Positions 631-40,475 are shown, counted from the stretch's first letter. The stretch is DNA of 51,313 bases from Methylococcales bacterium (GCA_028688755.1 JAQTXN010000001.1:1-51313); one strand, 5' to 3'. Translations and numbers: made by a program. Notes: generated by a model not told the origin, from the sequence alone.

Positions 631-3600
631 ATGACAACACAATCTCAACTAAGCAATTCACAACCGTTGCTTTATGACGCTGACCAGTCGCAAGACAGTT
701 GCGGCGTTGGTTTCATCACCCACAAACGCAGTTTGCAAACACACGATTTATTAGTTAAATCGCACGAAGCATTATGCACGATTCCACATCGTGGCGGCAT
801 GAGCGCAGAAGGTGTTGGCGATGGCGCAGGTGTGAATATCGATTTGTCATTGAAATTTTTTCGCAAACTCACCAGTAATCCGACTTTAGAACTCGGTCAA
901 TTTGGTGTGGCAAACTTCTTTTTCCCCGCTGACCACGCGCATTATGATTCAGCGGCAAATGAACTTGTTGAACGTCATTTTGCAGAATTCGATTTACCGT
1001 TAATTGCCCGTCGCGTGATTCCCGTTGATAACGCGGTTATCAATGCAGCGGCGGTGAAAGCCCAATTACCGATTGAACAATTCATTTTCGGTCGCCCCGC
1101 ACATTTGCAAAATGCGTCACACGAAGAATTTGAAAAACACGTCCAAAAAGCATTAGTTACCATTGAAGTGGAAGGTTTTACGCGCCCAGAACTCGCAGGT
1201 TTTTACCCGCTTTCAATGAGTTCACGCACCCAAGTTTATAAAGGTCGTTTGAATTCGGGCGAGGTAATTCCGTATTTCAAAGATTTATACGATACCGACC
1301 ACGAAATCAGCACGTTATTTTTTCATACTCGCTTTTCAACGAATACTGCGCCTGCCACGATGATGGCGCAACCGTTCCGCTACATGGCGCATAACGGCGA
1401 GTTGAACACCGACAAAAAAAATCGCCTCAGCGAAAACGCGATTGCGCGTCAACACAATAAATCGGTTTGTTTCCCGAATGGTCAATCGGATTCTAGTCGT
1501 TTAGACCAAACTTTAACTCGCCGTATCAACGAAGATAATTTAAACATCGTCGAAGCGATTTTAGCGATGATGCCGCCAGCTTGGGAAAACGACACGACGC
1601 TTTCGCCAGAAGTTCGCGCTATGTTGGAATACTTCAGTTTGTACGAAGAAAAAAATGATGGCCCTGCGGCGTTGATTTTCAATGATGGGATTCGTGTTGG
1701 TGCGCGTTTAGACCGTTTAGGTTTACGTCCGTTGCGTTCTGTGGAAACGACAGATTATTTAGCCGTTATGTCCGAAGCGGGACAAATTGATTTTCCACCG
1801 CAAGACGTTTTAAAACGTGGACGTATCGAAGCAGGTGGAATGCTGTATTTTGACCACAGCACAGGCGAAGCCTACGATTCACATCAAGTTCTAGCAAAAC
1901 TCGCAAAAGAAAAAGATTACGCGGCATTGTTAAAACAACGCGCGGTGAATTTGTCAGATTTACCAAAAGTGGATTTAAGCGAATTGAGCAATGACCACGA
2001 ATTGAACGTTGACCAACGTTTTACGGCGTATTCGCTCAATCAAGAAAGTTTCCGTTTCTTGCTCGACCCGATTTTAGCGACAGGCATGGAACGCATTTCC
2101 GCGATGGGTTATGGGCTGGCACCGAACGCGCTTTCAGGCGGCGAAGGTGGAATGTCACGTTATTTCAGTCAACGTTTTGCACAAGTGACCAATCCACCGC
2201 TTGATTCAATTCGTGAAAGCGATGGCATGACATTGCGTGTGGCTTTAGGTGCAAAACCAACGTTTTCAGAAAACAGCAAACAGCTTGTTATCGAAAGCCC
2301 GATTTTGCAACGCACACAATTAGAGCAAATTCGTCGTCAAACAGCGGTTTCAACGATTACTTTAAACGCGCTGTATACACCTGATTTTGATAGCGTTGAA
2401 GGCAATGAACATTCTTTAACTCGTGCGCTTAACTCAGTTTGTGATGAAGTTGAAAAAGCGGCGCGTAACAATATCGGCATTATCATTTTAAGCGATGCCA
2501 AAATCAGCAAAACACAAGCGGCAATTCCTGCGTTGTTAATGGTTGCGGCGGCAAATCAACGTTTGGTGCAACAAGGTTTGCGCTTTAATTCCTCGCTTAT
2601 TTCAGAAACAGGACAAGCGGCAAGTCCACACGATGTGGCGACGATTTTAGGTTTTGGTGCGTCGGCGATTTGTTCGTTGAGCGTTCACAATCGCGCGATT
2701 ACCCAGTATTCAGGTACTGACCAACAAAAAGCTCTCGATAAATTCTCAAAAGGTACAGAAAAATCTTTGATGAAAACGATGGGCAAATTTGGTTTGTGTA
2801 CCGCCGAAAGTTATATTGGCGGCGAATTTTTCGAATCGAATTATTTAGATACCGACGAACCTAAATTGCATCCGTATTTCCCGAACATTCATTCGTCAGT
2901 CGGCGGTGTGCGTTACAGCGATATTGCCGCGAGCGCGACCGAATGGCATCACAAAGCCCTTTCTGTTGAAAGCGAAAAAGACATTCCGTTCTTAGGTTTG
3001 TTCAAAGAGCGTCAAGATGGCGCGGGACATTCTTACGGAAACACGGCGGTGCGTGAATATATTCACATGACCGACGAAGCGATTTTATATATTCCACAAG
3101 AAAAATCAGCCGAAGCCAGTGATTTAGCGTATTTGGATTTAGGTTACGAAAAACGCACGCCTGAGCAAATTGATAATTTTGGTATTACGCCAGCGTATCG
3201 TAGTTTTGCGAAAAATCTTTATGAAGAACGTGACGCGCGACCAGCGGCATTGCGTGATGTGATGGACTTTCCAGCGGATGTGTCAAATGCGGAAAGCGTT
3301 GAGGATTTCGACAAAATTTTAGGCAAACAAAATCTGCGTGGTAACGTCAATTATTTGATTCGTGGTTTGTCGGTTAGAAAATTGGATGAAGTTTTCAAAG
3401 TCGCGTTCACGGAAAATAACAGCCAAGAGCGTTTGCAAAATTTAGCGGCACATTTGAAAAAACGTTTTGTGGACGATTTTCATCTCGTGTCATGCGGATT
3501 GAATGTTGCCGCCGATGCGTTGCGCGTTGAAAACGTACCTGCAGGCAGTTTGTTGTCGGATTATTTGAATGCAATCCAAACTGCAAACGCGCCGTTGCCA

Positions 3601-6087
3601 TTAGCCGACGTTCAATCGGCACATGAAATTACCGCAACGTTGGCATCAGGCGCAATGAGTCACGGCGCGTTGCTTGCCGAAGCGCACGAAGCGGTTGCCC
3701 AAGGCACAAACATTGTTGGCGCGTTAAGCAATTCGGGCGAAGGCGGCGAACATTTCAGCCGTTTTAACAGCATCAAATCGAGCAAAATCAAACAATTTGC
3801 GTCAGGACGTTTCGGTGTTTGGACAGGTTATTTAGCTGACCCAACGCTTGAAGAAATCGAAATTAAAATCGCGCAAGGTGCAAAACCTGGTGAAGGTGGA
3901 CAATTACCTGCAATGAAAGTGTCGGTAGAAATCGCCGCATTGCGTGGCGGCACACCGAAAGTCGAACTCGTCAGTCCACCGCCGCATCACGATACTTATT
4001 CGATTGAAGATTTAGGGCAGTTGATTCACGATGCCAAAGCGGCGCGTGTGAAAGTGGGCGTGAAACTCGTTTCGTCTGAAGGTATCGGCACGATTGCAGT
4101 CGGCGTTGCAAAAGCGGGCGCAGATGTTATCAACGTGGCAGGCAACACGGGCGGCACAGGTGCGGCGGCGGTGACAAGTTTGAAACACGCAGGACGTTCG
4201 CCTGAAATCGGGATTGCCGAAGTGCATCAAGCTCTTTCGGTCAACGGCTTGCGCGATAAAGTGATTTTGCGTTGCTCAGGCGCACATCAAAGCGGTTTGG
4301 ACGTAGTGAAATCAGCGATTTTAGGCGCGGATTCTTTCGAGTTCGGCACGACGGCGTTGATGATGTTGCGTTGCGTAATGGCGAAAAACTGTAACATCAA
4401 ATGTCCCGCAGGTTTGACCACCGCACACGAAGAATTCAAAGGCGACCCGCGTGTGTTAGCGCAGTATTTTATGAACGTCGCGCACGAAGTTCGGGAATTG
4501 CTCGCGTCACTCGGTTATAAAAATTTACGCGACATTCGCGGCAAAACTGATTTGTTACATTTAATCGACCACCCTTGCATGGTTGGGCAATTGAATTTGA
4601 CCAAAATGTTGCAACAAGTCGAAGAAGTCAAAATCGCGCAACCGATTTATTTAGAAGCTGATTTCCAAGTTGACGACAAGATTTTAGAACGTGTGAAAGC
4701 GTTTTTAGAAAACGGTAAATCTGAACAATTGGTGATTGATGGCGACGATTTCAAACTGAAAAACAACGATAAAACCGTTGGCGGTCAGTTGGCGATCGAT
4801 ATTGAACGGATTTTAAATTACGAATTCAACGGCGATGCGTCATTCATCTACAAAAACGAACACGGACGACGTTATTTAGCACCTGAAACCATCGTGATTC
4901 GCACACACGGCTCGGCTGGTCAAAGTTATGCAGCGTTTATGAATGACGGGATGTATTTACGTCATTTAGGCACGGCAAACGATGGCGTGGGTAAATCGAT
5001 GAGCGGTGGCGTGTTAGTTGTCGAATCACCAGGTGGCGGTATCAAAACTCCAGGCAATAACGTGTTAATCGGTAACTTCGCATTATTCGGCGCGACAGGC
5101 GGCAAAGCGTTTATCAACGGCGAAGCGGGCGATCGTTTTGCGGTGCGAAATTCGGGCGCGATGGCAGTAGTTGAAGGCGTGGGCGATTTTGGTTGCGAAT
5201 ACATGACTAACGGCGCAGTGCTTAACATCGGCGGCTTTGGTAAAGGTTTCTGCAACGGGATGTCAGGCGGCAACGCTTACCAATATGACCCTGAAAATAA
5301 ACTTACCGCGTTGTACGACAAAACGTCTGTGGAATTGCACGATTTAACCGAAGATGATGCACACGAAAAAATCGTGTTGCACATGCTTGAGCAACACGCC
5401 GAATATGCGAACTCAAGCAAAGCGCGTAACTTGCTCGCTAATTGGGAAAATGAACGCACACATTTCAAATTTGCAATGCCGCTTTGGCTCTATAAAACGC
5501 AAACTGCCAGCTATTTAAAAGCATCGATGGATGCGAAAGAAATGGTGGAAGAATTGGCGGTCGATTTGGCGCAAACGCAAATCGCGCAAGTCAAAAAATC
5601 CTATCAATCAGGTCAGCCGTTGTTTAATGGTGCGATTCCTGCGTTTGGCGAAGTCGATAGCGCGTTGGCGTTTAACTTGATTAACAGTTTTGCGGTATTC
5701 GATAAAGCGCAAGCGGTGGCGGCAGAAATGCTTAAAACTGCGCCAGAATCACAACGCACGCCTGCTCACATTGAAAAAGCGGCGAAAAAGCTGATTTTGG
5801 AACGTCCACGCAAATTGCAAGATGCGTTAGTTAAAACTACTCGTGAAGCCTACAGCAGTTATAACGATGACGAAATCGCGGCGTTGCTTGCCAATAAACG
5901 TTTGAATGATTACAAAACCGCGTTAATCAATCGCTCGGTGCAAAGCATTAACTCGATGGGTTCAACGGTTTGGATTATTGAGCAAAGCCACGCGAATCGC
6001 GTTGCACTGGCAAACATTACGCCTGTTGAGAAACATTTGGCGAGTTTGGTTGGGCTGGAATTGGCACAAGATGGACTTGCGGCTTAA
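631..6087 (+). CDS. gltB: Glutamate synthase large-subunit homolog (GltB-like), atypically long at 1818 aa
   Basis: Ntn class-II amidotransferase start (QDSCGVGFI...PHRGG) and a central GltS domain. FMN region GAMSHGALLAEAHEA...SNSGEGGE and a Cys cluster CVMAKNCNIKCPAG (Cx5Cx3C). GXGXG beta-helix region (GSAGQSYAAF, GVGKSMSGG, GEAGDRFAVRNSGA). Also an insert of about 100 aa before the FMN domain and a C-terminal extension of about 200 aa. Confidence 0.85.
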   Translation: MTTQSQLSNSQPLLYDADQSQDSCGVGFITHKRSLQTHDLLVKSHEALCTIPHRGGMSAEGVGDGAGVNIDLSLKFFRKLTSNPTLELGQFGVANFFFPADHAHYDSAANELVERHFAEFDLPLIARRVIPVDNAVINAAAVKAQLPIEQFIFGRPAHLQNASHEEFEKHVQKALVTIEVEGFTRPELAGFYPLSMSSRTQVYKGRLNSGEVIPYFKDLYDTDHEISTLFFHTRFSTNTAPATMMAQPFRYMAHNGELNTDKKNRLSENAIARQHNKSVCFPNGQSDSSRLDQTLTRRINEDNLNIVEAILAMMPPAWENDTTLSPEVRAMLEYFSLYEEKNDGPAALIFNDGIRVGARLDRLGLRPLRSVETTDYLAVMSEAGQIDFPPQDVLKRGRIEAGGMLYFDHSTGEAYDSHQVLAKLAKEKDYAALLKQRAVNLSDLPKVDLSELSNDHELNVDQRFTAYSLNQESFRFLLDPILATGMERISAMGYGLAPNALSGGEGGMSRYFSQRFAQVTNPPLDSIRESDGMTLRVALGAKPTFSENSKQLVIESPILQRTQLEQIRRQTAVSTITLNALYTPDFDSVEGNEHSLTRALNSVCDEVEKAARNNIGIIILSDAKISKTQAAIPALLMVAAANQRLVQQGLRFNSSLISETGQAASPHDVATILGFGASAICSLSVHNRAITQYSGTDQQKALDKFSKGTEKSLMKTMGKFGLCTAESYIGGEFFESNYLDTDEPKLHPYFPNIHSSVGGVRYSDIAASATEWHHKALSVESEKDIPFLGLFKERQDGAGHSYGNTAVREYIHMTDEAILYIPQEKSAEASDLAYLDLGYEKRTPEQIDNFGITPAYRSFAKNLYEERDARPAALRDVMDFPADVSNAESVEDFDKILGKQNLRGNVNYLIRGLSVRKLDEVFKVAFTENNSQERLQNLAAHLKKRFVDDFHLVSCGLNVAADALRVENVPAGSLLSDYLNAIQTANAPLPLADVQSAHEITATLASGAMSHGALLAEAHEAVAQGTNIVGALSNSGEGGEHFSRFNSIKSSKIKQFASGRFGVWTGYLADPTLEEIEIKIAQGAKPGEGGQLPAMKVSVEIAALRGGTPKVELVSPPPHHDTYSIEDLGQLIHDAKAARVKVGVKLVSSEGIGTIAVGVAKAGADVINVAGNTGGTGAAAVTSLKHAGRSPEIGIAEVHQALSVNGLRDKVILRCSGAHQSGLDVVKSAILGADSFEFGTTALMMLRCVMAKNCNIKCPAGLTTAHEEFKGDPRVLAQYFMNVAHEVRELLASLGYKNLRDIRGKTDLLHLIDHPCMVGQLNLTKMLQQVEEVKIAQPIYLEADFQVDDKILERVKAFLENGKSEQLVIDGDDFKLKNNDKTVGGQLAIDIERILNYEFNGDASFIYKNEHGRRYLAPETIVIRTHGSAGQSYAAFMNDGMYLRHLGTANDGVGKSMSGGVLVVESPGGGIKTPGNNVLIGNFALFGATGGKAFINGEAGDRFAVRNSGAMAVVEGVGDFGCEYMTNGAVLNIGGFGKGFCNGMSGGNAYQYDPENKLTALYDKTSVELHDLTEDDAHEKIVLHMLEQHAEYANSSKARNLLANWENERTHFKFAMPLWLYKTQTASYLKASMDAKEMVEELAVDLAQTQIAQVKKSYQSGQPLFNGAIPAFGEVDSALAFNLINSFAVFDKAQAVAAEMLKTAPESQRTPAHIEKAAKKLILERPRKLQDALVKTTREAYSSYNDDEIAALLANKRLNDYKTALINRSVQSINSMGSTVWIIEQSHANRVALANITPVEKHLASLVGLELAQDGLAA

Positions 6088-6105
6088 CGTCAAAGAATAA
6101 CGTTT

Positions 6106-6324
6106 ATGATTACGCTATCACCCGAATTAGAACAGCAAATTAACCATATTGCACAAATTGAGCAGAGTAGTCCTGCAATGTTGATTGCAAAATGGGTTGA
6201 AAATTATCAGAAGTTTGCAAAAAATTTCGCTACTGAAGATGACTTCTATTTGTTGGGTGTTAGCGATTCATTGGAAGAAGAATGGAACAGTGCTGAAGAC
6301 AACGAGGCGTTTCGTGACCTTTGA
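6106..6324 (+). CDS. Putative type II antitoxin (ribbon-helix-helix-like), partner of the MazF/PemK toxin
   Basis: 72-aa ORF. Its N-terminus ITLSPELEQQINHIAQIEQSSPAMLIAKWVE has a strand-helix-helix pattern and the tail is acidic. Its stop (6322-6324) overlaps the GTG start of the downstream toxin, the classic TA arrangement. Confidence 0.6.
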   Translation: MITLSPELEQQINHIAQIEQSSPAMLIAKWVENYQKFAKNFATEDDFYLLGVSDSLEEEWNSAEDNEAFRDL

Positions 6325-6670
6325 ACGTTTCGATGTGGTAAAAGTGCCATTCCCTTTTACGGATAAACAAGTCACTAAAACTCGCCCCGCTTTGGTTGTA
6401 TCTGACAAAAGTTTTAATGTTAGCGTGGGTCAATCTGTTATGGCGATGATAACGAGTGCAAAAAGTTCCACATGGCTATTTGATACAGATATTACGGATT
6501 TAACAGCAGCAGGATTGCCAGTTCCTTGTTTTATTCGAATGAAACTATTTACGATTGATAACCAGCTTGTCATCAACAAACTAGGGCGATTGTCACAGCG
6601 AGATTCTGTTGAATTTGAAAGAAATTTCGGAATGTTGCAAGGCACTAACAAAAATAATTCAACGTGTTAA
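6314..6670 (+). CDS. Type II toxin, MazF/PemK family endoribonuclease
   Basis: From GTG 6314: VTFERFDVVKVPFPFTDKQVTKTRPALVVSD...MAMITSAK...AAGLPVPCFIRMKLFTIDNQLV, which matches the PemK/MazF signature. The longer track ORF (6185..6670) would overlap most of the antitoxin and is rejected. Confidence 0.8.
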   Translation: MTFERFDVVKVPFPFTDKQVTKTRPALVVSDKSFNVSVGQSVMAMITSAKSSTWLFDTDITDLTAAGLPVPCFIRMKLFTIDNQLVINKLGRLSQRDSVEFERNFGMLQGTNKNNSTC

Positions 6671-6691
6671 TTTACAAATTTTAAAAATCAC

Positions 6692-8404
6692 ATGAAAACA
6701 CACCAACTTCCAAACGACGCACCTTACAGCGACAATCAACGTGCATGGCTCGGCGGATTTTTCGCTGGCTTGCATTCGCAACTTGTGCAAAACAGTGGCA
6801 ACGCGCAAACCGCTCGCACCATTCATATTTTGTACGGTTCACAAACTGGCACAGCCGAATCGGTTGCGCGTGATGCCGTCAAAGTCGCCAAAGCACACGG
6901 TTTAAATCCTGTCATCAAAAGCATGGATGAAATCGATGCTGACGCATTGACCAAAATGGAAACCTTGCTTATCGTCACCAGCACTTACGGTGAAGGCGAA
7001 ATGCCAGACAATGCCCAAGTGTTATGGTCTGCGGTTAAAGCGGATTCGATGGCGAAATTAGAAAACTTACAATTTGCCGTTTTAGCGTTGGGCGACACCA
7101 GTTACGATTTATTCTGCCAAGCGGGAATTGATTGGGACAATCGTTTAGCCGAATTGGGCGCAACCCGCTTACAAACGCGCGTCGATTGCGATGTCGAATA
7201 CGAAGAACCCGCCGAAGAATGGATGCACAGCGTAATACCTGCTTTAGCTGGTAGCGACGCAACCACGGCAATCGTTTCTGAAGACAGCGACGACAAATCA
7301 CAATACAACCGTAAAAATCCATTCCCAGCGAAATTGCTGGTGAATCGTTTGTTGACGGCTGAAAATTCATCAAAAGAAACCCGTCATTATGAAATTTCAA
7401 TTGCGGGTTCTGGCTTGAGTTATGAAGCTGGCGACGCGCTTTGCGTTGTGCCAACAAATTGCCCTGATTTAGTTACTGATATTTTGAAAGCGATTAAATG
7501 CGACGGCGACGAAATCATTAACGGTGTGTCATTGCGCGAAGCGTTGCAAAATCAGTTTGAAATCAAAACGCCAAGCAAAGAATTGTTGCAAGAAATTGCT
7601 ACCCGTTCAGGCAATCAAGAATTAAACAACGCGCTGAACGACAAAGAAGCCTTAAGTAATTATTTGTGGGGACGCGATACGCTCGATTTATTGTTGCAAA
7701 ATCCAAGCGTGGAATTTTCAGCGGCAGAATTTGTGGCGTTATTAAAACCGTTGCAACATCGCGCTTATTCAATTTCATCAAGCGGCAAAGCGAATCCTGA
7801 AACGGTGCATTTGACTGTTGCCAGCGTGCGTTACAACGCTTTTGACCGTCAACACAAAGGCGTTTGCTCAACTTTTCTTGCGGATTTGACCAACGACACG
7901 ACCGAAATTCGTTGCTTTTTCACACCGAACAAAGTTTTCCGTGTGCCAGACAACAACGATTTGCCAATGATTATGGTCGGGCCTGGAACGGGGATTGCTC
8001 CATTCCGCGCGTTTTTACAAGAACGCCACACACGCGGTGCGAAAGGCAAAAACTGGTTATTTTTCGGCGACCGCAATGCAGCAACCGATTTTATTTACCG
8101 CGACGAATTAGAAGTCATGCAAAAAGACGGTTTGTTGAACTGTTTGGATTTAGCATTTTCGCGTGACCAAGAAGAAAAAATCTACGTTCAAGACAAAATG
8201 CGCGAACACGGTGCAGAATTGTTTGCATGGTTAGAGCAGGGCGGTTATTTCTTTGTTTGTGGCGATGCGTATCACATGGCAAAAGATGTGGATAAAGCCT
8301 TGCACGATGTGATTGCAACGCATGGAAATAAAACCGAACAACAAGCCATAGATTACGTTAATCAACTCAAAAAAGATAAACGTTACGTTCGTGACGTGTA
8401 CTAA
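6692..8404 (+). CDS. cysJ: CysJ-like diflavin reductase (flavodoxin domain plus FAD/NADPH-binding ferredoxin reductase domain)
   Basis: The N-terminal QRAWLGGFFAGL resembles the CysJ N-terminal motif. Flavodoxin-like ILYGSQTGTAE...TSTYGEGEMPDN. FNR-type RAYSISSS, MVGPGTGIAPFRAF, FFGDRN, YVCGDA and terminal ...RYVRDVY. Confidence 0.8.
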   Translation: MKTHQLPNDAPYSDNQRAWLGGFFAGLHSQLVQNSGNAQTARTIHILYGSQTGTAESVARDAVKVAKAHGLNPVIKSMDEIDADALTKMETLLIVTSTYGEGEMPDNAQVLWSAVKADSMAKLENLQFAVLALGDTSYDLFCQAGIDWDNRLAELGATRLQTRVDCDVEYEEPAEEWMHSVIPALAGSDATTAIVSEDSDDKSQYNRKNPFPAKLLVNRLLTAENSSKETRHYEISIAGSGLSYEAGDALCVVPTNCPDLVTDILKAIKCDGDEIINGVSLREALQNQFEIKTPSKELLQEIATRSGNQELNNALNDKEALSNYLWGRDTLDLLLQNPSVEFSAAEFVALLKPLQHRAYSISSSGKANPETVHLTVASVRYNAFDRQHKGVCSTFLADLTNDTTEIRCFFTPNKVFRVPDNNDLPMIMVGPGTGIAPFRAFLQERHTRGAKGKNWLFFGDRNAATDFIYRDELEVMQKDGLLNCLDLAFSRDQEEKIYVQDKMREHGAELFAWLEQGGYFFVCGDAYHMAKDVDKALHDVIATHGNKTEQQAIDYVNQLKKDKRYVRDVY

Positions 8405-9046
8405 ATGACGGTTGATTATTTCGATTTGAATTGCCAAAAATGTCCGCGTCTCGCGGCATTTTTGTGTGAAGTAAAAGAAAAAAATCCGACGTATCACTGC
8501 AAACCTGTCGCGCCATTTGGTGATGAAAAGGCAAAATTAGTGATTGTCGGACTCGCTCCAGGAATGCACGGTGCAAATGCTTCGGGGCGACCTTTTACGG
8601 GCGATTATGCAGGTTTGTTTTTATATCAAGCATTGTATGATTTTGGTTTTAGCAATAAACCAACGTCAGAATCATTAAGTGATGGTTTAGTTTTGCACAA
8701 TGCGCGAATCACTAACGCTGTAAAATGTTTGCCACCGCAAAATAAACCAACTGGCGAAGAAATTAACATTTGTAATACGTTTTTGAGCAAAGAATTAAAA
8801 ACGCTGCCTGAGAATTCCGTGATTTTGGCGTTAGGCTTAATTGCTCATCAAGCGGTTTTAAAAGCCTACGATTTGAAAGCGTCGAGTGCGAAATTTGCTC
8901 ACAATGCTAAACACGAATTACCTAACGGGCATTTTTTAATAGATTCGTATCACACCAGCCGTTACAACGTGAATACAAAACGCCTGACAAAAGAAAGTTT
9001 CAATGCGGTTTTTGAAACGATTATGCCATTGTTAAATCAGTCCTAA
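8405..9046 (+). CDS. Uracil-DNA glycosylase superfamily protein (family 4/5-like)
   Basis: N-terminal Cys motif CQKCPRLAAF and active-site-like GLAPGMHGANASGRPFTGDYAG. The ATG directly abuts the upstream stop (TAAATG). Confidence 0.7.
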   Translation: MTVDYFDLNCQKCPRLAAFLCEVKEKNPTYHCKPVAPFGDEKAKLVIVGLAPGMHGANASGRPFTGDYAGLFLYQALYDFGFSNKPTSESLSDGLVLHNARITNAVKCLPPQNKPTGEEINICNTFLSKELKTLPENSVILALGLIAHQAVLKAYDLKASSAKFAHNAKHELPNGHFLIDSYHTSRYNVNTKRLTKESFNAVFETIMPLLNQS

Positions 9047-32556: not shown

Positions 32557-32982
32557 TTAATCCCAGCAACCTGCTGTATCGGGTGAGGTGCCATTTGCCC
32601 CTTTTTCACCTGTATTTTTAAGTGTCAATGTGCCACATACATCAGAGGTTTGTGCGCCATCTGGCGTTGCTGTGAGCGTGTAAGAAGTGGCATCAGACAC
32701 CAAACTTAATGTGTACGTTTTCGTCCCACCATCGGTAGGAACTTGATTAGCAAAAATCTGAGACATATCTGTGCCATCCGTTCCAGCTTTGTAACTATTA
32801 TTTTCAACGCGCCACTGTTCCATTGCCGTCGCAAAAGACACTAACGCGCCTTGCGCTTCAACACGTTTAGCTTTTCTAACGTGACTTTGATAACTTGGAT
32901 AACCCACACTCGTTAAAATCCCAACAATCGCCACTGCAATCATCAATTCAATTAACGTAAAACCCTTTTGTTTAGTTTTCAT
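32557..32982 (-). CDS. Type IV pilin (PilE/PilA-like major or minor pilin)
   Basis: Class III signal and N-methylation motif KQKGFTLIELMIAVAIVGIL. C-terminal disulfide loop C...C (CGTLTLKNTG...AGCWD). GGAG RBS upstream. Confidence 0.9.
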   Translation of the reverse strand: MKTKQKGFTLIELMIAVAIVGILTSVGYPSYQSHVRKAKRVEAQGALVSFATAMEQWRVENNSYKAGTDGTDMSQIFANQVPTDGGTKTYTLSLVSDATSYTLTATPDGAQTSDVCGTLTLKNTGEKGANGTSPDTAGCWD

Positions 32983-33463
32983 TTTTTACTCCGCTACGAA
33001 AGCCCGTTTTTTTTAAAATTTTAGTGCTGTAAAGCACGTCGTGACCTAAATTGAACTCGCCTAATAATACGACAATTTGCCCAATTTGGTGATGCACATC
33101 AGCTTCACTTTTGCCATGAACCATTGCAAATAAATTGTAATTCCAATCGGGTAAATGGCGCGGACGATGATAACAATGGCTCACAAATGGCAATCGTCCA
33201 ATGATTTCACCCAATAAATCCACGCGCTCATCTGGCACATTCCAAACGGTCATGCCGTTAAAGGTGTAGCCTAATTTGTAATGATTTGGCACGGCACCAA
33301 TGCGGCGAATGACACCATTTTTCTGCATTGCCTCAAATCGCGCCATGACGGTTTCAACAGGCAAATTCAATTGTTCTGCAACCGCATGATAAGGTTTTGA
33401 AACGAGCGGCAAACCTGCTTGTGTGGCTCTCATAATTTGCAAATCAATTTCTGAAAAATCCAT
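32972..33463 (-). CDS. Siroheme decarboxylase subunit, NirH/AhbB-like (AsnC-fold)
   Basis: IRRIGAVPNHYKLGY...VSHCYHRPRHLPDWNYNLFAMVHG...LYSTKILKKTG closely follows the NirH-type signature as I recall it. Confidence 0.7.
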   Translation of the reverse strand: MDFSEIDLQIMRATQAGLPLVSKPYHAVAEQLNLPVETVMARFEAMQKNGVIRRIGAVPNHYKLGYTFNGMTVWNVPDERVDLLGEIIGRLPFVSHCYHRPRHLPDWNYNLFAMVHGKSEADVHHQIGQIVVLLGEFNLGHDVLYSTKILKKTGFRSGVKNEN

Positions 33464-33919
33464 TTATGCCTCCAACTTTAAACCAACAAAATACTCGTTA
33501 ATTTTTGGCATATTAAAAACGTGTAAACCTGTTTGCAGCTCAATTTTTTCAAGTGTTTCGTCGAGTTGCAGCGGTGTTTCGGTTGCGACGACAAACCACA
33601 TATTTAATTCATGATTACGCTGATAGTTATGTGCGACTTCGGGAAACGCATTGACGATTTCAATGACTTTTTCAAAATCCGCGTCAGGAACTTTCAGTGC
33701 AGCAAGCGTTAACGCACCGCCCATTTTCTCAGCATGATATAACGCACCAAAACGAGTGAGCGTGCCATTTTCAAGCAATTTTTTTAACCGATTTAACACA
33801 TCGTCTTCAGTTAAACCTAATTCATTTGCTACTTGCAAATACGGCTCATCACAAATCGGAAAGCCATCTTGCAAATGATTTATCAAGCTCGCATCAATTT
33901 CGTCGTAATGTTTAGTCAC
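33464..33919 (-). CDS. Siroheme decarboxylase subunit, NirG/NirD/AhbA-like (AsnC-fold)
   Basis: GTG start. LINHLQDGFPICDEPY...LTRFGAL...VAHNYQRNHELNMWFVV matches the NirD/NirG-type motif HNYxRxxxxNxWF. Its stop abuts the next gene's ATG. Confidence 0.7.
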   Translation of the reverse strand: MTKHYDEIDASLINHLQDGFPICDEPYLQVANELGLTEDDVLNRLKKLLENGTLTRFGALYHAEKMGGALTLAALKVPDADFEKVIEIVNAFPEVAHNYQRNHELNMWFVVATETPLQLDETLEKIELQTGLHVFNMPKINEYFVGLKLEA

Positions 33920-36270: not shown

Positions 36271-38670
36271 TTAATACTCCAATTTCAACGACCCCATCAC
36301 ACTAAGAGGATTACCAGTGATGGTATTACTCGCGCCTTGCGTCGTAGCACCTGAATAGTATTCTTTGTCTAACACATTATTGAGATTCACTTGTGTAGTT
36401 AAGCGTGTTTTACCAATCGGTTTAACATAAGCTGCCATCATGTCCATTCGTACATAACCAGGCAATTCCAATGTACTCCACGATTGACCAGCTCTTGAAT
36501 CAACGACAATACCACCGATTCCAGCCTTAAATTCTGGGGTAAATTGATACGTCCCCCATAAACTTGCCTGATGCTCTGGCACATTTATAAGGCGTTTTCC
36601 TAATGCACCATTAGTATTTGCACCATTTTGAGTAACTCTTGCATCCGTATAGGCATATGTCAAAATCAAATTAAGCTCATCCGTAATACGACCTTTAATA
36701 TCCGCCTCAATCCCTTGACTTCTAGCCTCTCCTGCCGTGACTGAAAAGCCTGGGTGTTTGGAATCTGGTAGCTGTACATTCTGTTTAGTTAAATGATAGA
36801 AAGATACGGTACTTGAAAGTCTTTGATCAAAGAATTCCGTTTTAAAGCCAGCTTCGAATTGCTCACCAATTTCAGGTTTAATGGGTTGATTCCCATATAC
36901 CATTCCCGTATTAGCACTGCCAAGCGACTCGGTATAGTTGCCATATAGTGAAAGCCATGACATAGGTTGATACAGTACACCTACTCTTGGACTGAATTTC
37001 TGATTGTCACTACTTTTATAATTGGCACTCGCCACATCATAGTCGCCCTTACCAAAATCAGAACCTCTTCCAAATGTTGCCCAATCGTAGCGACCACCGC
37101 CTAAAATATGGAGTTTTTCAAATAAGGTAATATGGTCTTGGAAATATACGCCAAACCATTCTTCTTTTTCTTTTGTCGCGTAGTCATAAGGCGATGAATA
37201 AATGGCTGCTAGGTTAGCCGTGTTGTATGTCGGATTATAAATATCAACCGTGCCGCCAGTATTATTCCCACTACAACATGCAAATCTATTGTCGTCTGCT
37301 TTTCTGGTTCTACGCGAAAAATCACCACCGACTAATACTTCATGTTTTGTATTTAAAATATCAACATGACCAATCAAATCCAAATTAGTTCCATAGGTGT
37401 CGTGGTATGCCATACCAGTGATAGGAAATCTCTGTAACATGGTAGAGTCAATCATGTATTGCGGTTGAAGATCGAAATAATTTATATCCCAATCTTCGTG
37501 CATAAACCGATTTTTAACTTGCCATTTATCATTGAATTTATAAGACCAATCAAACGCCGTTAGGATGGAATTCATAACAGGTCCTTTATTCAAATCTCCG
37601 AGAAAAGTATTTAATGCCACTGGTGCAGGACGACTGCCAATAGTCGGTATCCCATTATCATTCACCCGTTTTTCATGTTTATATTCTAATTCTGCATTTG
37701 CTTCGAATCGATCGTTAGGTGTCCAACTAAGTTTAGGAGCCAAAAACACGCGCTCATCGCCAACATATTTTTTGAAAGATCCCATATCTTGATAAGACGC
37801 ATCAAGGCGATATTCTAGTGTTTTAGCCTCATCAATTGGACCAGTAGCTGCTGCGGTGGTGCGGTATTGGTCATAGTTTCCAAATTGTTGCTGCAATGAA
37901 TAATAAGGTGTATTGGAAGCTTTTTTAGTCACAACGTTGACCATGCCACCTGGTTGGATTTGACCATATAAAACCGCTGCGGGACCTTTTATAATTTCGA
38001 GTTCTTCAATATTGGACGGATCAGAATAGTTGGTGTAGCGACGAAGTCCGTTGCGATAGGTAGAAAAATTGGTACTAAAGCCGCGAATATTAAAATTTTC
38101 ATACAGATCGCCATACTCAGGATTTCGCTGTACGCCACTGACATTTTTAGTTAATGCGTCCGAGACTTCGACATCTTGCTGGTCATCCATGATGGCTTTT
38201 GATACGACTTGAATGTTGACAGGCGTTTCCATAATCGGCGTATTCGTTTTTGTGGCAGAACTGGAGTTTGTTGCACTGTAAGCGGTTGGGTCATTTTCAA
38301 TTTTTCCAACAACGGTCATTGGCTTTAACGTAATCGTATCGAGATTATCCGTTGTTGACGATTCTGATTTCGTCGCTTTAATGGCAACGGTGTTATCGCT
38401 GGTAAAATCAAAAACCAAACCACTTTGCGCGAGCATTTTTTGCAAGGCTTCCCGTTTACTCAAATGCCCTTTGATTGCTGGACTGCTCTTATTCGCAAGT
38501 GCTTCGTCGGCATAAAACGTTTGCAAACCCGTTTGTTGATTCAATTGCTCTAACGCCGACGCTAAAGGTTGTGCGGGGATGTTGAAATCAAATTTGTTGT
38601 CATCAGCAAGGGCTATCGAAATACACGCGGCAAGCGGTAGACTAGCGATAAATTTTGGAAAAGTACGCAT
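36271..38670 (-). CDS. TonB-dependent siderophore receptor with N-terminal signalling (STN) domain (FecA/FpvA-type transducer)
   Basis: Signal peptide MRTFPKFIASLPLAACISIALA and an STN domain (FNIPAQPLASALEQLNQQTGLQ). Plug motifs (ETPVNIQVV, IEELEIIKGPAAVLYG), a long beta-barrel and a terminal ...GSLKLEY. Start set at ATG 38670 after an AGGAG RBS. Confidence 0.9.
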   Translation of the reverse strand: MRTFPKFIASLPLAACISIALADDNKFDFNIPAQPLASALEQLNQQTGLQTFYADEALANKSSPAIKGHLSKREALQKMLAQSGLVFDFTSDNTVAIKATKSESSTTDNLDTITLKPMTVVGKIENDPTAYSATNSSSATKTNTPIMETPVNIQVVSKAIMDDQQDVEVSDALTKNVSGVQRNPEYGDLYENFNIRGFSTNFSTYRNGLRRYTNYSDPSNIEELEIIKGPAAVLYGQIQPGGMVNVVTKKASNTPYYSLQQQFGNYDQYRTTAAATGPIDEAKTLEYRLDASYQDMGSFKKYVGDERVFLAPKLSWTPNDRFEANAELEYKHEKRVNDNGIPTIGSRPAPVALNTFLGDLNKGPVMNSILTAFDWSYKFNDKWQVKNRFMHEDWDINYFDLQPQYMIDSTMLQRFPITGMAYHDTYGTNLDLIGHVDILNTKHEVLVGGDFSRRTRKADDNRFACCSGNNTGGTVDIYNPTYNTANLAAIYSSPYDYATKEKEEWFGVYFQDHITLFEKLHILGGGRYDWATFGRGSDFGKGDYDVASANYKSSDNQKFSPRVGVLYQPMSWLSLYGNYTESLGSANTGMVYGNQPIKPEIGEQFEAGFKTEFFDQRLSSTVSFYHLTKQNVQLPDSKHPGFSVTAGEARSQGIEADIKGRITDELNLILTYAYTDARVTQNGANTNGALGKRLINVPEHQASLWGTYQFTPEFKAGIGGIVVDSRAGQSWSTLELPGYVRMDMMAAYVKPIGKTRLTTQVNLNNVLDKEYYSGATTQGASNTITGNPLSVMGSLKLEY

Positions 38671-38765
38671 AAAAATCTCCTCTAAAGTTAAATGGTTTAA
38701 AAACACTCCATAAAACTTGAGACGAGTTTATTTAATTGCACCGCCACTTTTTAGTAAAAAGATTT

Positions 38766-39728
38766 TTATTTTCCCGAAACCAAAACTGTTCGCTCGCCCA
38801 TTTTTGTAAATTTAATCGGCAACGCGCTGGCAATCGTATTGAGCGCAAGACTTAAATTATCGGCAGGGAATGTGCCGCTGACACTGAGGTTTTGTGGCGT
38901 ATTTTCAGACAGTTGCAATTCAACATCGTGATAACGCGCTAATTGCGCTAAAACGTCACGCAACGGTTGTTTTTTGAAAATCAATTTTCCTGTTTGCCAT
39001 GCGGTAACGCTATTCACATCGGTTTTTTCCAGCGGCGCAATTTGCCCTTGCTCGTTATAACTGGTTTGCAAACCAGCAATAATGTGACGCGGCGTTGGAT
39101 TTTCAGATGTCGTAATTTGCACTTCGCCTTCTAAAACCGTGACAGCCACTTGATTGTCGTGCTGATAAACATTAAAACGGGTTCCAACATCTTCAATCAC
39201 GCCTTTTGCCGCCGCAACGGTGAAGGGTTTTTTATCATTGTGAACGACAGAAAATAACGCTTCGCCTCGAATAAAATTAACCTCTCTGCCCATAAAACCG
39301 TAATGCACGTTTAATTGCGTATCCGTATTTAAAATAATTTGCGAACCATCTGCTAATTGAACCGTTTGTCGTTCACCTTTTGCTGTTTGATAGGTTTGCG
39401 TGGTGGCGTGAAAATACAAATACGGCGAAATCCCCATCATCAAAATAACTGAAAATGCCAATGCTAAACGTGGTGAAAACAAGCGTGGTGGCGCGGGTGG
39501 GCGTTGCAAATAATGGCGCGCGGCGGTGAGTTCTTGATTGATGAGCGGTTCAACAGAATTTAAGTTCTGCCAAAAATTTTGCACGTCTTGATAAGCCTGT
39601 GCGTGCGCGGGTTTTTTAAGCAACCATCTGGAAAAATCGCGGCGTTCTTCTTCTGTACAATCGTGAGATTGTAAACGTGTGAGCCAAAAACTTGCCTGTT
39701 GATGAATAGAATTCGATTTTGTTTTCAT
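38766..39728 (-). CDS. fecR: FecR-family anti-sigma factor / transmembrane sensor
   Basis: N-terminal anti-sigma region (QASFWLTRLQS...W), a single TM and a periplasmic FecR domain (Y.T.KGERQTVQLADGSQIILNTDT...). It sits between the ECF sigma and the TBDR. Confidence 0.85.
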   Translation of the reverse strand: MKTKSNSIHQQASFWLTRLQSHDCTEEERRDFSRWLLKKPAHAQAYQDVQNFWQNLNSVEPLINQELTAARHYLQRPPAPPRLFSPRLALAFSVILMMGISPYLYFHATTQTYQTAKGERQTVQLADGSQIILNTDTQLNVHYGFMGREVNFIRGEALFSVVHNDKKPFTVAAAKGVIEDVGTRFNVYQHDNQVAVTVLEGEVQITTSENPTPRHIIAGLQTSYNEQGQIAPLEKTDVNSVTAWQTGKLIFKKQPLRDVLAQLARYHDVELQLSENTPQNLSVSGTFPADNLSLALNTIASALPIKFTKMGERTVLVSGK

Positions 39729-39786
39729 AAAGAAGTTTGAGGCGATAAAGGCAGGCTATGAAAACGATGATTATAAACGAACACGC

Positions 39787-40299
39787 TTACAAATCCTGAC
39801 CGACGCTTTTAGCAAAACAATGCGCGAGTGCTTTCGCGCAATAACGTTCAACCGTGCGTTGCGGTAAATTCAATGCTTGAGCAATTTCGCTGTGCGATTT
39901 GCCATCAAAACGATGCAATAAAAAAACATGACGATACACGTCAGGCAGTTCGTTTAAGGCTTGCAAACACTGTTTCAAAATTTGTTGACTATCCAAATGA
40001 GCGGCAATTTCAGGTTGTGGCGAATGCACATTATCAAACACAACTTCGGTGTCGGAATCAAAATGCTTTTTATGCACTTTATCGTGGCGATGATAATCAA
40101 AACCTAAATTTGCAATGATTTTATAAAGATACGCGCGGGGATTTTGAATGGTTGCAGAATCAGGATGTTGCAACAAACGTAAATAGGCTTCTTGTACTAA
40201 ATCTTCTGCGTCAATTTGACTAAAGCTGGAATTCGCAAAACTTAATAACTCTAAACGATGATGACGAAATAGCGTCTCGAAAAAACGGTGTTTGGACAT
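39787..40299 (-). CDS. fecI: ECF sigma-70 factor, FecI-like
   Basis: Region 2 (DAEDLVQEAYLRLL...YLYKIIANLGFDYHR) and region 4 (LPDVYRHVFLLHRFDGKSHSEIAQALNLPQRTVERY). ATG 40299 is preferred over the TTG at 40323. Confidence 0.85.
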   Translation of the reverse strand: MSKHRFFETLFRHHRLELLSFANSSFSQIDAEDLVQEAYLRLLQHPDSATIQNPRAYLYKIIANLGFDYHRHDKVHKKHFDSDTEVVFDNVHSPQPEIAAHLDSQQILKQCLQALNELPDVYRHVFLLHRFDGKSHSEIAQALNLPQRTVERYCAKALAHCFAKSVGQDL

Positions 40300-40475
40300 A
40301 ACGGGCAGTAAAAAATAATTCAATTACCGTTTGTTAAGGCAACAACTGAGCCGATGAAATTAAAACAACGCTAAGTCAGTAAGTTATCGATTTAGAAAAT
40401 AAGGGGTTATTTTTTAATTAGGGGATATGCCGCAGGAGTGAGCGATATGACACATACCAATGTTGAAAGAATTAT

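Follow-up and report, generated by a model that had tools for sequence, protein, structure and literature searches.

The stretch of DNA considered here, subsequently referred to as 'the window', comprises 51,313 nucleotides (nt) from Methylococcales bacterium (GCA_028688755.1, JAQTXN010000001.1, positions 1 to 51313), a type I methanotroph of the gammaproteobacterial order Methylococcales. Near one end of the window lie two genes on the same strand, one encoding an unusually long relative of GltB, the large glutamate synthase (GOGAT) subunit, and the other encoding a CysJ-like diflavin NADPH reductase; the top homologs of both proteins are found in Methylococcales (72-98% identity), and a metagenome-assembled genome (MAG), 'Methylococcales bacterium STB_1' (L025), encodes proteins that are 97-99% identical to them. 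An earlier note on this DNA had suggested that the reductase might supply electrons to the large subunit in place of the usual small subunit GltD, with a novel tail or insert in the large subunit acting as a docking surface. The analysis described below supports the first of those suggestions and divides the second: as judged from comparative sequence evidence, the gene pair probably encodes both subunits of a separate kind of NADPH-dependent glutamate synthase, in which a diflavin reductase replaces GltD. The reductase was considered to be a dedicated partner because (i) the two genes are tightly adjacent; (ii) natural fusions between them exist; (iii) the reductases concerned form a separate clade; and (iv) neither cysI nor gltD directly follows the gene for the long protein.

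The large subunit (hereafter 'GltB-long', encoded by 'gltB-long') is, as the earlier note had it, the product of an open reading frame (ORF) of 1818 amino acids (aa), in which the four GltB domains are intact (Pfam E-values of 1e-51 to 1e-103) and the cysteine at aa 24 corresponds to position 1 of the hidden Markov model (HMM). The match to the Glu_synthase family covers HMM positions 47-368 only, and that domain was therefore read as split. When aligned with solved structures, aa 5-806 corresponded to residues 4-805 of Bacillus subtilis GltB and aa 985-1628 to residues 845-1481; this alignment to known GltB and ferredoxin-dependent (Fd-GOGAT) structures, of the kind that had been proposed for delimiting the extra material, left two unmatched regions, namely approximately 140 residues in the linker between the central and FMN domains and approximately 150 residues at the C-terminus. 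An insert of about 100 aa had been placed at roughly nt 3290-3590, and its measured position (nt 3262-3570) was close to that estimate: two homologs (P0006 and P0007, 91-92% identical) lack exactly aa 878-980 in a MAFFT alignment of 120 homologs, and this clean indel defines a discrete insert of 103 aa. A further 36 or so surplus residues lie outside that insert, at aa 806-877. The other features read from the sequence at the outset also held up, including a Cys-free C-terminal tail (approximately 190 aa, predicted to be helical throughout), a Cx5Cx3C iron-sulfur (Fe-S) motif, and a downstream flavodoxin-plus-FNR reductase with a CysJ-like N-terminus. Similarly, no gltD (Fer4_20 plus Pyr_redox_2, and as a rule a neighbour of gltB) or cysI was found in the window, either by Pfam scans of its 37 main ORFs (at least about 125 aa) or by tblastn with E. 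coli CysI, E. coli GltD and one Methylococcales GltD as queries, and the genome beyond may differ in this respect. The features of the locus are collected in the table.

Features of the gltB-long/reductase locus (positions in nt of the window; aa numbering within each protein)
Feature	Position	Strand	Basis or remark
GltB-long (long-form glutamate synthase large subunit), 1818 aa	631..6087	+	catalytic Cys aa 24 after 23-aa propeptide
Class-II (N-terminal nucleophile, Ntn) glutamine amidotransferase domain GATase_2, aa 24-431	700..1923	+	Pfam PF00310, E 1e-88
Glutamate synthase central domain Glu_syn_central, aa 463-736	2017..2838	+	Pfam PF04898
103-aa insert domain, aa 878-980, in central-to-FMN linker, family-typical	3262..3570	+	indel vs P0006, P0007, L016
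FMN-binding synthase domain Glu_synthase, aa 984-1296	3580..4518	+	Pfam PF01645, E 7e-103
[3Fe-4S]-type cluster motif (assumed type) CVMAKNCNIKC (Cx5Cx3C), aa 1248-1258	4372..4404	+	long-form signature
GXGXG beta-helix domain, aa 1408-1577	4852..5361	+	Pfam PF01493
C-terminal tail domain, conserved, Cys-free, all-alpha, aa ~1630-1818; proposed reductase docking module	5518..6084	+	prediction
Putative antitoxin, 72 aa, part of inserted cassette, outside enzyme	6106..6324	+	position
MazF/PemK-family toxin, 118 aa from GTG 6314 (within ORF 6185-6670)	6314..6670	+	Pfam PF02452, E 2e-13
CysJ-like diflavin NADPH reductase (570 aa), suggested as the subunit that donates electrons to GltB-long	6692..8404	+	
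Reductase N-terminal conserved peptide NDAPYSDNQRAWLGGFFAGLHS; family consensus IPxDAPFxxxQRAWLxGFxAGLHSR	6713..6778	+	
Flavodoxin-like FMN domain of reductase, aa 46-177	6827..7222	+	Pfam PF00258 Flavodoxin_1
FNR-like module of reductase: FAD-binding aa 206-395, NADPH-binding aa 428-534	7307..8293	+	Pfam PF00667 FAD_binding_1, PF00175 NAD_binding_1

The association of the two genes was assessed in a set of 122 long-form loci, consisting of 119 loci listed from a genome scan (described below) together with L001-L003. The co-occurrence of the long GltB with a neighbouring CysJ-like gene, which the earlier note had put forward as a check, was thereby found to be close to general: a reductase gene lies directly downstream, on the same strand, in 116 of these 122 listed loci, with an estimated stop-to-start distance of -6 to 217 nt and a median of approximately 21 nt. 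The other six consist of two in-frame fusions, one locus too short to be judged, and three loci without an adjoining reductase. Neither gltD nor cysI directly follows gltB-long at any of the 122 listed loci, and cysI is found nowhere in them. The remaining neighbours vary, such that Methylomicrobium agile and Methylomonas methanica MC09 share only the pair itself and a divergent FAD-monooxygenase-like gene (Pfam FAD_binding_3/SE). A scan for promoters and terminators between the two genes gave nothing above chance. A mirror-tree comparison of GltB with the reductase gave a correlation of r = 0.95 overall and 0.27 outside Methylococcales, and was set aside and not counted as evidence because it reflects shared phylogeny. 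As a separate observation, a third gene on the same strand follows the reductase in 16 of the listed loci from Actinomycetota and some Alphaproteobacteria (L008, L009, L014, L015, L018, L021, L028-L030, L048, L069, L072, L081, L096, L103 and L105); it encodes a HemS/ChuX-like protein (PF05171, 280-340 aa) that has a Cys-rich N-terminus in most members examined.

In three independent sequences, the tail of GltB-long and the reductase are joined in frame. In Lentisphaera marina IMCC 11369 (L035, an isolate genome), an unbroken ORF runs from the tail through the whole of the reductase to ...KRYVRDVY*, and a fragment from a Lentisphaeraceae MAG (P0254, obtained from a protein search with the tail alone) has a single frame that spans the GXGXG domain and the tail together with the N-terminal motif of the reductase, a flavodoxin domain and the first part of the FAD domain. 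The third (P0324, obtained by searching with P0254, and corresponding to locus L003 on an 81-kb ENA contig) is a GltB-reductase fusion gene of approximately 2430 aa that remains recognisable despite long-read frameshifts. In these fusions the tail is connected by about 20 residues to the peptide with which the reductase family begins (IPxDAPFxxxQRAWLxGFxAGLHSR), and an end-to-end joining of the two proteins from the window produces a fusion-like architecture.

The reductase of the window displays all three diflavin-reductase domains (Pfam) and aligns over its full length with E. coli CysJ at 41% identity, sharing with it the N-terminal sequence W-x-x-G-[YF]-F-x-G and ending in the CysJ-type C-terminus RYVRDVY. 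Its score of 472 exceeded the cutoff (432) of the NCBIfam model NF004859, 'sulfite reductase subunit alpha', and it failed both cysJ equivalogs, TIGR01931/NF008197, with scores of 621.4 (below 668.15) and 519.5 (below 838). Because the genome loci had been picked on the tail, a reverse scan was made in which metagenomes were searched with an alignment of nine reductases, blind to GltB. Among the 80 loci obtained, the GltB tail lies no more than 400 nt upstream of the reductase in 53, and 600-1900 nt upstream, with inserted genes between, in four others; in three the upstream DNA was too short. Of the 20 that remain, 18 constitute a separate group, in which 12 of the 18 have a gene for a CysI-like hemoprotein immediately adjoining, and the last pair, L191 and L206, falls among the tail-associated reductases.

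When 175 reductases were arranged in a neighbour-joining tree with E. coli CysJ as the root, all 153 tail-associated reductases were placed in a single clade of 155 tips, the two exceptions within it (L191 and L206) being near kin of L195, whose spacer holds an insertion. The CysI-associated reductases fell into another clade, of 19 tips, to which the nearest neighbours of E. coli CysJ belong; mean identity amounts to 56% among the tail-associated reductases and to 47% between them and the other set. The earlier note had held that a CysJ-like gene next to cysI in relatives would speak against the partnership. Such an arrangement was found only in the sister clade, and in none of the 153 loci of tail-associated reductases to which the window gene belongs. 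The members of that sister clade may be the true bearers of the name 'sulfite reductase subunit alpha'; the adjoining CysI-like hemoprotein of its metagenomic loci (L180-L205) is itself only 22-25% identical to E. coli CysI. Taken with the adjacency in the listed loci and the fusions, this clade supports the proposal that the CysJ-like reductase is the electron donor of GltB-long.

The long form was followed across genomes by scanning GTDB, each species being represented by a single genome, for a degenerate DNA pattern that encodes the tail motif KR[LIVM]xD[YF]K-x5-R-x8-G-x3-WI. At least 119 loci were recovered, and all of those listed were true tails behind a GltB core, with no false positives. 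They are distributed among Actinomycetota (at least 31 loci, in Streptomyces, Rhodococcus, Mycobacterium/Mycolicibacterium, Gordonia, Nocardia, Curtobacterium and others), Methylococcales (at least 28), Alphaproteobacteria (at least 27, in Rhizobium/Agrobacterium, Rhodobacterales, Cohaesibacter, Labrenzia and Pseudovibrio), other Gammaproteobacteria (at least 13, in Vibrio, Pseudoalteromonas, Hydrogenovibrio, Methylophaga and Colwelliaceae), unclassified Pseudomonadota (at least 12), Planctomycetes-Verrucomicrobia-Chlamydiae (PVC) bacteria (at least four, in Lentisphaera, Opitutales, Puniceicoccaceae and Planctomycetaceae), Betaproteobacteria (at least two, Methylobacillus) and Bacteroidota (at least two). 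A comparison of the tail alone with 1.84 billion representative proteins returned 74 matches, fragments for the most part, and the search with P0254 found tails in fragments named as Planctomycetota, Verrucomicrobiota, Actinomycetota and Alpha-, Beta- and Gammaproteobacteria. The long form is thus a coherent and widespread family, present in more than 100 bacterial species from several phyla, whose members are 55-68% identical across phyla over the C-terminal core (aa 981-1600). The window displays the Cx5Cx3C motif, the tail motif and a downstream reductase of the tail-associated clade, its sole deviation being a cassette in the spacer between the two genes.

Among GltB proteins, the long form stands apart in several respects. 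E. coli GltB and a canonical GltB from Methylococcales share the canonical [3Fe-4S] ligand motif Cx5Cx4C and are 46% identical to one another; GltB-long is 30-31% identical to either of them in its N-terminal half and 41% in its C-terminal half, and departs from their ligand motif, carrying instead CVMAKNCN[IV]KCPAGLTT (Cx5Cx3C), which was found in all 96 of the 96 long-form loci that cover the cluster region. GltB-long passed the NCBIfam equivalog NF008730 narrowly (1064.7 bits against a cutoff of 1047, with the match in two stretches), and its best matches in the PDB are NADPH-type enzymes (847 and 774 bits) as compared with 729 bits for the Fd-GOGAT structure 1LLW. The best 120 homologs of GltB-long are all 1713-1880 aa in length.

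The earlier note had left open whether the tail or the insert might dock the reductase, and the two fared differently. The tail is present in every long-form family member examined, and was modelled from an alignment of 24 sequences as approximately ten helices with high scores (predicted local distance difference test, pLDDT, 92.3; predicted template modelling score, pTM, 0.86); no significant match was found for it in the PDB by Foldseek (best E 1.6, TM 0.2), and no family in Pfam. Since it is universal in the family and joined to the reductase in the fusions, and since concatenation of the two window proteins mirrors those fusions, the tail is most likely the docking element, and the best candidate for that role. 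The insert, by comparison, shows the weakest conservation within the protein (39-53% identity among Methylococcales). It was modelled as a small alpha/beta domain (pLDDT 86.8), for which Foldseek gave a weak, non-significant likeness in the PDB to the cap domains of HAD phosphatases (E of 6e-3 or greater).

A natural deletion experiment bears on the role of the insert: an insert-less lineage (P0006, P0007 and L016) is 91-94% identical to the window GltB, and L016, which has lost the insert, has kept the tail and encodes a reductase 33 nt downstream; the contig of P0007 stops at the GltB gene itself and gave no information on its neighbours. The insert is therefore unlikely to be needed for the partnership. 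An enlarged linker between the central and FMN domains is nonetheless usual, and measures 175-200 aa in 65 of 69 long forms; the exceptions are L016 (76 aa), Gordonia desulfuricans L072 (102 aa), and the PVC loci L003 and L063, in which it is longer. In those two PVC long forms (L063 being an ORF of 1920 aa at 784-6546), the linker reaches 269-276 aa. The possibility that the insert is an intein or mobile element was considered and rejected, as intein termini are lacking and 67 of 69 long forms, which span several phyla, contain the insert.

These observations can be assembled into a proposed route of electron transfer. GltB-long retains the complete set of catalytic parts, with a glutaminase domain and its Cys1 nucleophile, an ammonia-channelling central domain, the FMN synthase site, the GXGXG beta-helix and a cluster assumed to be of the 3Fe-4S type, and would be reduced by a dedicated diflavin reductase of the CysJ/CPR type rather than by GltD. 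Electrons would pass within the reductase from NADPH to FAD and then to the FMN of its flavodoxin-like domain; from there, as the genomic evidence suggests, they would be delivered by one-electron transfers to the Cx5Cx3C cluster of GltB-long, and would then proceed to its FMN and to 2-iminoglutarate, formed from 2-oxoglutarate and glutamine-derived ammonia, yielding glutamate. The steps internal to each protein are established for reductases of the CysJ/CPR type and for GltB. The tail of GltB-long would anchor the reductase, probably via the conserved N-terminal peptide of the latter, and in Lentisphaerae both subunits are fused as one polypeptide.

Several observations weigh against this proposal, and three alternative explanations were considered alongside it. 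Two Methylococcales MAGs (L045 and L089) have no adjoining reductase, other genes being inserted between, and L063 shows none on a contig that ends approximately 1 kb past the gene; the type of cluster held by the Cx5Cx3C motif is, moreover, assumed from the sequence. In some Methylococcales MAGs (L013, L045/L125), canonical gltB-gltD genes stand beside the long pair or within it, and probably likewise at L089, where only a canonical-type gltB-like match was found. At L045 the order is gltB-long, canonical gltB (1518 aa), a BrnT fragment, gltD (480 aa), a hypothetical gene, DarT, NADAR and the reductase. At L013, a Methylococcaceae MAG, a gltD that is 78% identical to the GltD of L125 occupies positions 1-477 and ends just upstream of gltB-long, so canonical and long systems can cluster together. 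Many other long-form host genera are known to carry gltBD as well; GltD would thus often be on hand in the same cell, and may be used by GltB-long. Methylococcus capsulatus Bath has classical gltBD. A KEGG-based paper also lists gltD in Methylomarinum vadi (PMC12160114). Such coexistence would be compatible with another main donor (a GltD encoded elsewhere, ferredoxin or a free flavodoxin) and an adjoining reductase that is auxiliary or conditional, an arrangement for which there is a parallel in that Fd-GOGAT, a GltB-type enzyme, takes its electrons from small one-electron carriers. We regard this explanation as distinctly improbable, because an optional partner would not readily account for the near-universal tight adjacency, the natural fusions and a clade of dedicated reductases, and the gltD genes found nearby (L013 and L125) go with their own canonical gltB, that of L045/L125 being the one of 1518 aa.

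It might alternatively be supposed that the complex is real and that its reaction is not that of a conventional GOGAT, the enzyme using another 2-oxo acid or amide donor or serving a specialised or regulatory role. The divergence of GltB-long from canonical GltB, its altered cluster motif and extra domains, its bare passage of NF008730, the NCBI label 'glutamate synthase-related protein' carried by many members, the coexistence with canonical gltBD (direct in some MAGs, and probable in many host genera) and the HemS/ChuX-like third gene are all compatible with such a role. The strong scores of the four GltB domains and the retention of the Cys1 motif argue otherwise, as does the finding that Methylomicrobium agile and Methylomonas methanica have no gltD within 10 kb on either side of the pair, and this alternative appears unlikely. 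That the reductase is instead an ordinary CysJ of assimilatory sulfite reductase, lying beside gltB by chance and serving a CysI from another part of the genome, would agree with its identity to E. coli CysJ, its passing of NF004859 and the existence of a sister clade, at about 47% identity, that adjoins CysI-like genes. Failure of both cysJ equivalog cutoffs, the absence of cysI from all listed long-form loci, the separation of the two reductase clades and the in-frame fusions to GltB leave that explanation with very little probability. A dedicated GltB-long/diflavin reductase complex acting as an NADPH-dependent glutamate synthase thus remains the reading that we favour.

Glutamate synthase, a textbook enzyme with a central place in nitrogen assimilation, has three accepted classes that are distinguished by electron donor. 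Full-text searches of about 8.3 million papers and preprints (subscription-only papers lying outside their scope) revealed no link between glutamate synthase and a diflavin or CysJ-type reductase, and the pair is apparently an undescribed class of glutamate synthase. A more far-reaching form of the proposal, which we advance only tentatively, is that it constitutes a fourth GOGAT class, next to the NADPH-GltBD, ferredoxin-dependent and eukaryotic NADH types, whose reductase subunit is a diflavin protein free of Fe-S clusters; it would need 3 rather than 11 iron atoms per protomer, and may be an iron-sparing or oxidant-tolerant isoenzyme in the numerous bacteria that have gltBD as well and perhaps, in many type I methanotrophs, the principal GOGAT or the sole one. 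GltBD contains one [3Fe-4S] and two [4Fe-4S] clusters, GltD being the FAD subunit that carries both of the latter; an enzyme of the long-form type would require far less iron, which suggests, speculatively, that iron-sparing or oxidant-tolerant role in cells with both systems. Should the proposal prove correct, (i) a systematic misannotation would be corrected, in which the reductase is now called 'sulfite reductase subunit alpha', the labels given to the synthase being 'glutamate synthase-related protein' or 'ferredoxin-dependent'; (ii) metabolic models of biotechnological methanotrophs (Methylotuvimicrobium, Methylomonas and Methylomicrobium), in which the costs of NADPH and iron matter, would change; (iii) a natural case would be provided of an Fe-S reductase swapped for a flavin-only reductase; and (iv) a function would be assigned to a conserved new helical domain and to the Cx5Cx3C cluster variant.

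The 0.6-kb cassette that separates the two genes in the window (6106-6670) encodes a toxin-antitoxin pair of the MazF/PemK type. The antitoxin ORF overlaps that of the toxin by 11 nt, in the gene order of MazEF/PemIK systems; the antitoxin (72 aa), which has no Pfam match, is putative and was named from its position. A junction alignment indicated that the spacer of the closest relatives (L025 and L016) is only 29 nt long, and on that basis the insertion is recent. Other spacers contain different modules, including a 335-aa ORF with a DNA methyltransferase, probably a restriction-modification system (L127/L163, at approximately 6100-7970), DarT-like and partner genes (L137, 3950-5600), a GNAT acetyltransferase gene (L195, 5754-6203), and the canonical gltB-gltD block with BrnT and DarT/NADAR (L125, 261-8690). 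The spacer between gltB-long and the reductase in Methylococcales therefore looks like a hotspot that has been repeatedly invaded by selfish modules.

Elsewhere in the window, a gene for a family-4 uracil-DNA glycosylase (8405-9046) begins one base past the reductase stop (8404/8405), and is not kept as a neighbour in Methylomicrobium agile or Methylomonas methanica. Two adjoining AsnC-like/NirDL-like genes of the siroheme decarboxylase type (32972-33919) and an iron-uptake cluster made up of FecI, FecR and a TonB-dependent receptor, with a PepSY-TM protein (36271-40323), are encoded on the minus strand.

Among known systems, the GltB/GltD NADPH-GOGAT (EC 1.4.1.13; Azospirillum brasilense 1EA0/6S6S and B. 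subtilis 7MFM) most closely resembles the proposed enzyme, in that the large subunits share the same four domains, the Ntn Cys1, the FMN site and a three-Cys motif, and NADPH is presumed to be the ultimate donor in both. GltB-long differs in having an Fe-S-free diflavin reductase in the place of GltD, as well as the Cx5Cx3C motif, an insert close to 100 aa in length and a helical tail of some 190 aa. Fd-GOGAT (EC 1.4.7.1; Synechocystis 1LLW/1OFD), a single subunit of approximately 1500 aa from the cyanobacterial or plastid lineage that is reduced by ferredoxin, is, as proposed for GltB-long, a GltB-type chain that works without GltD and with a separate one-electron carrier, and the flavodoxin-like FMN domain of the reductase may deliver electrons in a comparable manner. 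The donor of GltB-long, in contrast, would be a dedicated NADPH-linked reductase, tethered or fused, and Fd-GOGAT is without the tail, the insert and Cx5Cx3C, the alignment with 1LLW stopping at aa 1617 of GltB-long.

The reductase itself is most readily compared with CysJ of the E. coli CysJI complex, which exhibits the same order of flavodoxin, FAD and NADPH domains, the sequence W-x-x-G-[YF]-F-x-G and a C-terminal RY(V/Q)RDVY, and which, as proposed for the window pair, is a diflavin reductase that feeds a metallo-flavoenzyme partner; the differences are that the partner gene is gltB-long rather than cysI, that the window protein scores below both cysJ equivalogs, and that it belongs to a separate clade. 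A precedent for a diflavin module fused to an enzyme of nitrogen assimilation is suggested by NasN, reportedly described by Tan et al. in 2020 (J Biol Chem 295:5051, as cited in PMC10704036) and, by the title of that work, a diflavin-containing monomeric assimilatory nitrate reductase, the acceptor there being a nitrate reductase and not GltB. Finally, eukaryotic NADH-GOGAT (EC 1.4.1.14) is a natural fusion of GltB-like and GltD-like parts, and so unites large subunit and reductase in one chain as does the Lentisphaera fusion; the fused reductase is GltD-like (Fe-S and FAD) in the eukaryotic enzyme, whereas in the long-form system it is CysJ-like (FMN and FAD).

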